The notes beneath the pieces are model-generated. The model did not search any database and was not told the DNA's origin. It saw only the letters and a list, made by a program, of their open reading frames with translations. From assembly GCA_951406725.2 (NCBI GenBank), contig OX597821.1, forward strand, positions 5,456,001 to 5,520,000: a stretch of 64,000 nucleotides of DNA. Direction: 5' to 3'. Source of the DNA: Octopus vulgaris. Lineage: Eukaryota. Shown piece after piece: positions 60,964 through 63,188 of this stretch. Each line of letters starts with the position of its first letter. Within the stretch, counting starts at the first letter, position 1. The position numbers were made by a program, and so were the translations under genes.

Positions 60964-62093
60964 AAAAGAGGAAAACAGATGGTGTAGACAACAAACAGCT
61001 GTATTAGTTTAACGCTCGGAAAGTGAAAATGTTTTAACTTTTCGAGCCTACGCTCTTCTACAGAAAGGAACACAAAAGGAAGCAAGGAGAGAAAATAAAG
61101 AATGTGTAGTGGCTCGCGATCTATCATGGCGAGTGCCGGACACAAAGGTCACATAGGAGTGCTAGGAAGAAGGGGAGATAATAAAGTTGTGGTGATTTCA
61201 AAATGAGGGTGTGCGTGCGTAAGTATAAGAGAGTAGGTATGTTCGTGTGGAAGAGGGCTGGTGACCTTGATGCGTGCGTGCGTGTGTATGTGTAGGTGTG
61301 ACGCTATGGGGCTGAGAAATGGTCAGTGCTAGTGTTTACGTGGTGGTGTGATGTGATGTGTTGTGTGATATGGTGGTGTACAGTGGTGTGTAGTGTGATG
61401 GTGTTAGGAGGTGGAGGAGGCGAGAATGAGGAAAGCAAAGATGGGGTATGGGTTAGGCTAAGGGTGGGAGTAGAGGTTGGGTATGTGAGTTGGTTGAGGG
61501 TGGGGGTAGAGGTGGTGTATGTGGAAGTGGGTGTAAGGGATGAGGTAGGGTAGGAAGAGAAGGATAGGGAAGGTGGGGGTAGAATCTGTAGGGGTAGGTA
61601 GGGTTACGAGGGAGGGGAAGGAGAAGGTGGGTAGGAGTGAAGAGAAGAGAGAAGGAGAGTAGGAGTGAAGAGAAGTATGAGTTGGAGCAAGAGAAGAGAG
61701 GTGGGTGTGAGGAAGTAGGTGTGACGGGGAGAGAGGCAAGGGGAGGAGTTTAGATGAAGAGGGCAGGAGAGTTGAGCCCATATGGCGCAAAAGAGCGAAG
61801 ATAGAAGGTAAATCCCCGCTCACGGCGCAAACGGTAGTCCGGATGGCACCTGTGCAAAGACAATCTGAACACTGACAGGTGTTGCAAAGAGTGACCGGTT
61901 GGGCGAAAATGGCGCGAGACCGGGGTGTCATTGCCAGTCGGATGTCTCGGAGGTGTTCCGCGAACTGGTCAGCGAAGCGGCGTCCCGTTTTCCCGATGTA
62001 TAGAGAAGGGCAGAGACAGCAGGAGATGTAGTAGATGACATTGATAGAAGTGCAGGTGAAAAACTCGGTGATGTGATAGGGTCGATGATGGGT
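60961..62093 (-). mobile_element. Penelope-like element 3' remnant: GIY-YIG, pyrimidine-rich 3' region, pLTR with HHR variant
   Basis: FTCTSINVIYYISCCLCPSLYIGKTGRRFADQFAEHLRDI; HHR cttt-CTGTAGA-a-gagc(gtag)gctc-GAAA-ag-TT-aaaa at 61032-61067; 3' end abuts (TA)n. Confidence 0.92.
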
Positions 62094-62224
62094 ACCACTC
62101 ACAAGGCTTTGGTCGGCCGAGGCTATAGTAGAAGACACTTGCCCAACGTGCCACACAGTAGGACTGAACCCGGAACCATGTGGTTGGTAAGCAAGCTACT
62201 TACTGCACACCCACTCCTGCACCT
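62094..62224 (-). mobile_element. SINE family A head
   Basis: Near-consensus 5' 130 bp, cut at the PLE junction. Confidence 0.85.
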
Positions 62225-62268
62225 ATATATATATATATATATACATATATATATAGGTATATAGATAT

Positions 62269-62309
<41 letters not shown>

Positions 62310-62337
62310 TATATATATATATATATATATAAATTTA

Positions 62338-62808
62338 TATATAGAGGGCATTATTATACATACATGCCACACGCTAAGACGGACAATTAGTCATTTCTAC
62401 CAAAAATTTTACTAATCCCACCGAATGCAATTTTTCAAAGTAAGACATTTAAAAATATAGACTTGTATCACCTGTGATTTCATACCTCTGTATTCATCAG
62501 CAAGCCTGAACGTATCATAAATAAACGACCCTACCTCGTCTAAGCCGAGCAGCTAACTGATCAACATCAACGAAGCACATGGGTGAGTTTACATATATTA
62601 CATCCGGTAAATGGCAGACTTTTACGAATTGCATTTCGGGAAAGAAAAGTTTTTTCGGAATAAAAATTTAGCAATTAAGGACAACTTCTAAATAAGGAAA
62701 ACTTAACAAGAAATTATCAGGTAGATAGCGTGAAAGACCTGATAAGAGAAAAATTTTTTTCTTATTGAACATATTAATATATATATAGAGGGCATTATTA
62801 TACATACA
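62338..62808 (-). mobile_element. Terminally redundant 444-nt non-coding HHR element in (TA)n
   Basis: Direct repeat TATATAGAGGGCATTATTATACATACA at 62338-62364 and 62782-62808; canonical HHR inside. Confidence 0.85.
62460..62506 (-). ncRNA. Type I hammerhead ribozyme, canonical core
   Basis: ggcuug-CUGAUGA-auac(agag)guau-GAAA-ucac(ag)guga-UA-caaguc. Confidence 0.92.
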
Positions 62809-62990
62809 TATATATATATATATATACATATATACCTCTATATATACCTATATATATATACATATATACCTCTATATATACCTATATATATGAATATATA
62901 TATATATATGCAAATATATATATGCATATAGCTATATATATCTGTATGTATATAGGTATATGTATATCTGTGTATATATGTATATATATC

Positions 62991-63052
<62 letters not shown>

Positions 63053-63188
63053 CATATGTATATATATATAATGTATTTATATTTTTTTGTGGCGGGATAT
63101 ATTTGTCTCTCTCACTTTTTCTCCTTTTCTCTCTATCTACCTATATATGTATATATATGTGTGTGTGTGTGTGTATACATATATATCC

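Follow-up and report, generated by a model that had tools for sequence, protein, structure and literature searches.

Introduction

Two kinds of described element lie closest to the locus analysed here. For the non-LTR retrozymes of animals, Li 2026 (10.64898/2026.07.22.740005), in the sections available, takes two consecutive units with complete hammerheads as the criterion of activity, reports cleavage for one of the nine predicted elements tested and treats the mechanism of mobilisation as open. For Penelope-like elements, the available text of Craig 2021 (PMC8557442) gives 5´ truncation, partial tandems, an inverted arm and a bias towards microsatellites as marks, along with a 30-40-bp tail that is often found at one end only, a rule stated there in words. 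The accessible part of Frangieh 2024 (PMC11167929) adds that a Penelope-type protein cuts AT-rich DNA and extends both strands, and that two internal RNA start sites delimit the tail.

We followed up a hammerhead-bearing repeat near the end of a 64-kb stretch of Octopus vulgaris DNA (the window, to which plain coordinates refer). Set beside these systems the locus is in itself ordinary: its type of element is known, and the copy is probably spent.

The window copy is a single arm between TA tracts

The copy is a single 483-nt arm on the minus strand (62327-62809), made up of a 444-nt unit plus 39 nt (1.09 units, not an array), and it matches the natural unit of another member of the same non-coding retrozyme family (L006) at 94.6%. 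Its RNA-sense 3´ end lies on the left, at site A, and its truncated 5´ end on the right. As the first-pass annotation had reported, (TA)n flanks the copy on both sides (target tracts 62224-62326 and 62810-63082); the 2-kb bin that holds it has a GC content of 0.30. Site A (62327-62338, minus strand), the commoner of two fixed 3´ ends in the family, reads ..CUAUAUAUAAAU followed by (AU)n and is a putative start of reverse transcription. Adjoining it is a GGCA..TGCC hairpin (62347-62368, minus strand) common to the sister families, which had been placed correctly but called terminal; it lies within the unit. The second fixed 3´ end, site B (62660-62672, minus strand), is read through in the window copy.

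A 444-bp period with a 27-nt redundancy had been noted. The offset is real, as a direct repeat that is exact over 30 nt (62336-62365 = 62780-62809) and reaches 39 nt with mismatches (62327-62365 versus 62771-62809), so that the length first given was too short. The family unit, however, is 459 nt, and the 444-nt length arises from changes private to the window copy, a 12-nt deletion and 3 nt of small gaps. The deletion junction (62743-62773, plus strand) has one match genome-wide, the window copy itself, and the 444-nt form shows no spread. The internal hairpin TTATCAGGT/ACCTGATAA does lie where it had been located (62714-62745, with 9-bp arms at 62714-62722 and 62737-62745), and is perfect in the window copy only, the family carrying a mismatch: the private C-to-G change needed for the perfect form gives ACCTGATAA in 1 of the 78 unit passages in the 91 loci described below, with ACCTCATAA in the other 77. 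Several rare or private substitutions are also found in the window copy.

The redundancy is the place where the arm stops, 39 nt into a second unit (62771-62809, minus strand), with TA microhomology at its end. Across sister families the genome contains 1713 matches to a motif that spans the repeated segment and 0 to the reversed control, and the redundancy therefore belongs to the element, as had been supposed. A target-site duplication is ruled out for this repeat, which is internal to the family unit; true target-site duplications are unreadable inside (TA)n. The TA tracts (62224-62326 and 62810-62890) carry reverse-complementary interruptions, TAGGTA on the left and TACCTA on the right, together with a 34-nt duplication that contains CCTCTATATATA, a sequence identical to the A end of the element; the pieces of this sequence in the right tract may be a candidate minute inverted arm.

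The copy belongs to a dispersed non-coding family

The family to which the copy belongs is dispersed and non-coding, with a unit of 459 nt. The retrozyme-like nature proposed for the locus was borne out, in that copies sit head to tail. A DNA search of the 2.8-Gb genome gave at least 124 matches with 40 of 1817 candidates scored, full-length rows being 91-96% identical, and a 35-nt ribozyme core had 114 exact genome matches. We fetched 108 loci and dropped 17 duplicates, leaving 91 loci in which 152 arms were mapped. A full unit or an intact core was required for inclusion, and stops at the first cut site are therefore under-sampled among these loci. The longest ATG frame in the unit is 67 aa, with no RT + GIY-YIG ORF, and no unique body between repeats was seen in the mapped arms. 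Two intact cores are present in 15 of the 152 arms, and one in the window copy. Contigs from four sequencing runs that we guessed to be RNA, compared with a dimer of the L006 unit, contained pieces of the family, although strand, ends and circles are unreadable from contigs; some of these contigs share a short duplication of a sister subfamily.

A sister subfamily with a 481-nt unit is represented by a two-armed locus (L203+L204, G000:C1:64639700-64655250), at which 411 of 442 aligned bases are identical to the window unit. One of its arms is A-ended and about one unit long; the other is B-ended and holds 31 units (15 kb) with about 0.1% unit divergence, or 0.58 substitutions per unit pair. 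Variant blocks recur in units 10-16 and 27-29, and later duplication or assembly effects may contribute to these. If any locus is a young source, this one is the best candidate, and the subfamily, with its near-identical 31-unit arm, is a better candidate for a circle than the window copy. Shorter arrays of the 481-nt subfamily occur at L205, L206 and L208. Older sister families (L143-L172, L177, L182, L192, L201), with a unit of ~510 nt where seen, keep the A and B ends, and their hammerheads have a lengthened stem II and the triplets AUC, AUA and AUU.

Insertions end mainly at two sites, usually one per arm

In RNA sense, 80 of the 152 arms from the 91 loci have their 3´ end at site A (unit positions 1-12) and 58 at site B (unit positions 336-349), with 14 ending elsewhere. 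Site A lies ~135 nt past the predicted cut and site B 120-123 nt further. The 5´ ends are scattered, occupying all ten tenths of the unit, and most insertions are non-integer, at 0.3-2.2 units. (TA)4 was found within 30 nt of 133 of the 138 A or B ends, as compared with 216 of 2730 flank positions.

In more than half of the loci (54 of 91) two arms lie in inverted orientation, with their 5´ ends joined. Both ends are at A or B in 45 of these, and 43 of the 45 combine one A with one B (1 AA, 1 BB), where independent choice would give 22.5 (p 3e-11); the remaining 9 two-armed loci have an end outside A and B. The one-armed loci comprise 28 A, 7 B and 2 other. We considered whether B arms are blocked by an A arm. 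The data do not support this: no more than 8 of the 43 B arms measure 125 nt or less, and the lengths of the arms show no correlation (r = -0.06). The overlap in sequence between arms rules out twin priming of the L1 kind, in which the arms do not overlap. The Penelope-like signature of 5´ truncation, partial tandem, inverted arm and microsatellite target bias is present, and the optional tail at one end is matched in kind (two ends, one per arm), at a length of 120-123 nt versus 30-40 bp.

Arms of one locus usually copy one sequence and cross the ribozyme site

Units within an arm differ at 59 of 7642 columns (0.8%) and arms of one locus at 144 of 12,983 columns (1.1%), as against 3.6% between loci. 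Rare alleles are held in common within arms (15) and across arms (14), and both arms thus usually copy one sequence. At one exceptional locus, L032, the arms differ at six subfamily-diagnostic positions, which may reflect two templates or later conversion.

The predicted cut site is crossed once by 98 arms, twice by 17 and not at all by 37. An enrichment of stops at this site was looked for and rejected, with 1 of 152 ends within 4 nt and 3 expected; the lone arm ending at the predicted cut (L054:1068) is within chance. An anchor search 3´ of the cut gave 728 rows, and inspection by eye of the first 100, many of them from one array, showed no stop at the cut. Since arms run through the ribozyme site, the template would be a ligated circle or an uncut multimer, with the chances about even between the two.

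The predicted hammerhead is supported by covariation but is not the minimum-energy fold

The minus strand of the window copy contains the type I hammerhead (62459-62507) described in the first-pass annotation, with its AUA triplet and a predicted cut between 62466 and 62465. Stem I has 7 bp (62507-62501 with 62465-62459) and is followed by the core CUGAUGA (62500-62494), a 4-bp stem II with an AGAG loop, GAAA (62481-62478) and a 4-bp stem III. A search with Rfam at gathering score gave 0 matches in the whole window, and the hammerhead call therefore rests on the motif together with covariation. Across 46 distinct variants from the family and its sister families, each stem position is paired in 41-46. 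Stem III is nearly invariant, whereas stem I (G-C/A-U, U-A/C-G and U-A/G-C) and stem II show compensatory pairs. Since best pairing decided the register of stem I, and since no more than a handful of lineages stand behind the 46 variants, the covariation is supportive and not a formal test. Given that stems I and II covary across sister families, ribozyme cutting appears to be selected.

Folded as a circle, the window monomer has z = -4.5 relative to 60 dinucleotide shuffles; folding stronger than that of shuffled sequences is a reported trait of retrozyme RNAs in the literature available. The hammerhead is not the minimum-energy fold: the catalytic fold lies 3.4-7.6 kcal/mol above the minimum in predictions by a program that ignores tertiary contacts, and in the predicted minimum the partner of the core is the 5´ strand of stem III. 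The predicted probability of stem I is 0.13 for the window monomer and 0.94-1.0 for the sister circle, in which the core is still mispaired.

Elsewhere in the window, positions 3501-3535 (plus strand) hold a minimal type I hammerhead motif with a GUA triplet, from a different family, and 45428-45459 (plus strand) and 25938-25918 (minus strand) hold weaker hammerhead-like core motifs with poor stems.

Coding Penelope-like elements are present in the same genome

With 150 of 6136 GIY-YIG candidates scored, many intact RT + GIY-YIG elements were found in the genome. One coding RT + GIY-YIG element (781 aa) likewise terminates in AAA(TA)n, and its two 3´ ends differ by a ~35-nt tail, present at 4 of 17 ends; L121 has one arm with the tail and one without. 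These features agree with Craig 2021 (PMC8557442) and Frangieh 2024 (PMC11167929). This element is Neptune-like by the description in the available text of Craig 2021 (PMC8557442). A young coding Penelope-like family with pLTRs and a ~35-nt tail is found at L140-L142 (G000:C16:20.83 Mb, C16:33.68 Mb and C5:1.04 Mb). Its two ORFs are one of up to 479 aa (no Pfam match) and the 781-aa RT + GIY-YIG ORF with a CxxxCxxC linker, and it has a variant hammerhead-like core, UUGAUAA. A stretch in L141 is ~90% like a head-to-head two-armed piece of another hammerhead repeat in the window (41136-41425, core at 41191). The window also contains a broken coding Penelope-like fragment with an inversion (50313-52117), at 53-58% protein identity to the 781-aa ORF, and an old remnant (61908-62060, minus strand) that is 41% like the endonuclease region of that ORF and is separated from the copy at 62327-62809 by a common short repeat and a TA tract.

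We looked for a coding partner of the non-coding unit. Examination of 30 GIY-YIG loci and 24 extended loci, of 6136 candidates, gave separate non-coding insertions or short AT-rich matches only, and no pLTR likeness to the unit was found in these 30 + 24 loci, a small share of the candidates. A match at L116 was rejected as a coding partner; it is a separate sister-family insertion, with TA tracts and other DNA between it and the GIY-YIG fragment. A tblastn search with the 781-aa protein against the family and sister loci matched 6 loci; at L021, checked by position, where the match lies beside a family arm, it falls beyond the arm's end and in the opposite sense.

Discussion

We regard it as highly probable that the window copy is a 5´-truncated, single-ribozyme member of the 459-nt-unit family in a TA microsatellite, likely pasted there by a Penelope-like endonuclease/RT and likely a dead end. 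We read the family as a new one among the metazoan non-LTR retrozymes, with a Penelope-type enzyme as its likely mover, and by analogy with the coding elements the same Penelope-type route would mobilise it. Here anatomy, ends, targets and covariation are what we observe, and cleavage, enzyme and priming what we infer. RNA transcribed from loci with two or more ribozymes would be cleaved and then closed by ligation into circles of one unit. Once a Penelope-type protein had nicked (TA)n, reverse transcription would start inside the RNA at site A or B and continue past the ribozyme, its stopping point varying. With both nicked strands extended, an inverted two-armed insertion would result, with one arm from A and one from B, and the window copy would be one A-started arm that went 39 nt past a full turn. 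Several observations do not sit easily with this account. The A-B distance of 120-123 nt exceeds the 30-40-nt tail in the available parts of the published work, no coding partner was found in the 30 + 24 loci (150 of 6136 GIY-YIG candidates scored), the hammerhead is not the minimum-energy fold, with cleavage in Li 2026, as far as its text is available, in one of nine elements, and the six subfamily alleles that distinguish the arms of L032 are not explained by one template.

A more specific form of the preferred account, which we offer tentatively and think rather unlikely, has a Penelope-type dimer clamp one circle, with one of its two active sites firing from A and the other from B, each on its own nicked strand and each rolling round the circle, with pairing between the core UGAU and stem III AUCA keeping the ribozyme off. 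If it were true, its record in the genome would be the pairing of an A with a B end in 43 of 45 loci, along with the rare alleles that are shared.

The same element and enzyme could also have used an uncut linear multimer from tandem arrays as template, circles being a by-product, and we put the chance of this somewhat short of even. In the available sections of Frangieh 2024 (PMC11167929) ribozyme mutants had no effect on insertion and unprocessed RNA was the main in vitro substrate; homogeneous arrays, such as that of 31 units, could be the masters, the catalytic fold is disfavoured in prediction, and identical units and read-through fit equally well. Such a template is harder to square with the covariation of stems I and II across sister families, with the very long uncut transcript that a 15-kb arm needs and with the circles shown for coral, mussel and axolotl retrozymes (PMC7229834, as far as available). 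Were multimers instead products of unequal crossing-over at the DNA level after insertion of a monomer, tandems would be uninformative on the RNA template. The variant blocks in units 10-16 and 27-29 suggest local duplication or assembly effects, and local amplification is proposed in the available text of Li 2026, but most insertions are non-integer, with fixed 3´ and scattered 5´ ends, and the 1.09-unit window copy is not a product of exchange between full units; we find crossing-over improbable.

The unit might, alternatively, be the pseudo-LTR of a yet unseen coding Penelope-like element, with the copies as its truncated 3´ ends. The insertion marks are the same as those of the coding element, Li 2026 reports, in the part available, pLTR homology for 24 of 57 Xenopus families, and GIY-YIG scoring covered 150 of 6136 candidates. 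Arms longer than one unit, however, run into further units, up to 31 times, and of the 6 loci with a tblastn match the one checked by position, L021, has it outside the arm in opposite sense; the pseudo-LTR reading is distinctly improbable in our estimate. We think it extremely unlikely that the window locus is itself the source of an active 444-nt circular RNA, for which the first-pass annotation had judged it the best candidate. Its core is intact, its stems are perfect and its monomer folds strongly as a circle (z = -4.5). With one hammerhead, however, it has one cut site, and other copies are better candidates for an active circle; a single cut of a read-through transcript could release no unit. 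The unique 444-nt form, with its rare or private changes, has not spread, and Li 2026, in its available sections, looks for two ribozymes where this copy has one.

Comparison with known systems

The octopus family shares with the metazoan non-LTR retrozymes, as described in the available parts of PMC7229834 and Li 2026, an AT-rich non-coding unit of a few hundred bases with one type I hammerhead, an occurrence from monomers to long tandem arrays, strong predicted self-pairing and coexisting coding Penelope-like elements. One type I hammerhead per unit, head-to-tail units, the non-coding character and a GC content below 50%, which are among the criteria for a retrozyme, are found in its DNA, and on these features it belongs with the animal retrozymes. 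Its unit of 459-481 nt lies at or slightly over the 150-450 bp first reported for retrozymes and within the range of 51-972 in Li 2026, in the text available. Fixed double 3´ ends and two-armed insertions, both of which the octopus family has, are not described in the accessible portions of PMC7229834 or Li 2026. Some Xenopus families have pLTR homology (Li 2026, available text); none was found for the octopus family in 30 + 24 loci.

With endonuclease-bearing Penelope-like elements, going by the available sections of PMC8557442 and PMC11167929, the family shares 5´ truncation, partial tandems, an inverted arm, microsatellite targets, a hammerhead upstream of two internal, here putative, reverse-transcription starts and, in kind, an optional tail at one end. 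It differs from them in having no ORF, a tail of 120-123 nt (theirs is 30-40) and a fuller hammerhead, with a 4-bp stem III. Frangieh 2024 (PMC11167929, in the part available) found no strand difference in start site, whereas the two arms of an octopus insertion almost always use different starts. The Chlamys elements such as MRC1 (PMC8557442, available text) are likewise non-autonomous, Penelope-type and inserted as multicopy head-to-tail units. As described in that text, they resemble their own autonomous family at the 3´ end, in a clade without canonical hammerheads, and no such likeness was found for the octopus family in the 30 + 24 loci.

A search of the available literature found no description of the family or of a one-start-per-arm count; relatives of it may appear in the supplements of Li 2026 and Cervera 2020. 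What sets the family apart from known retrozymes is the long tail and the counted rule of one start per arm. The family carries a full Penelope footprint with rules that can be counted, namely two starts of which each arm uses one, a single template at each locus and no ribozyme stop, and such rules could be put directly to the test in vitro, using the intact RT-endonuclease elements that the genome contains.
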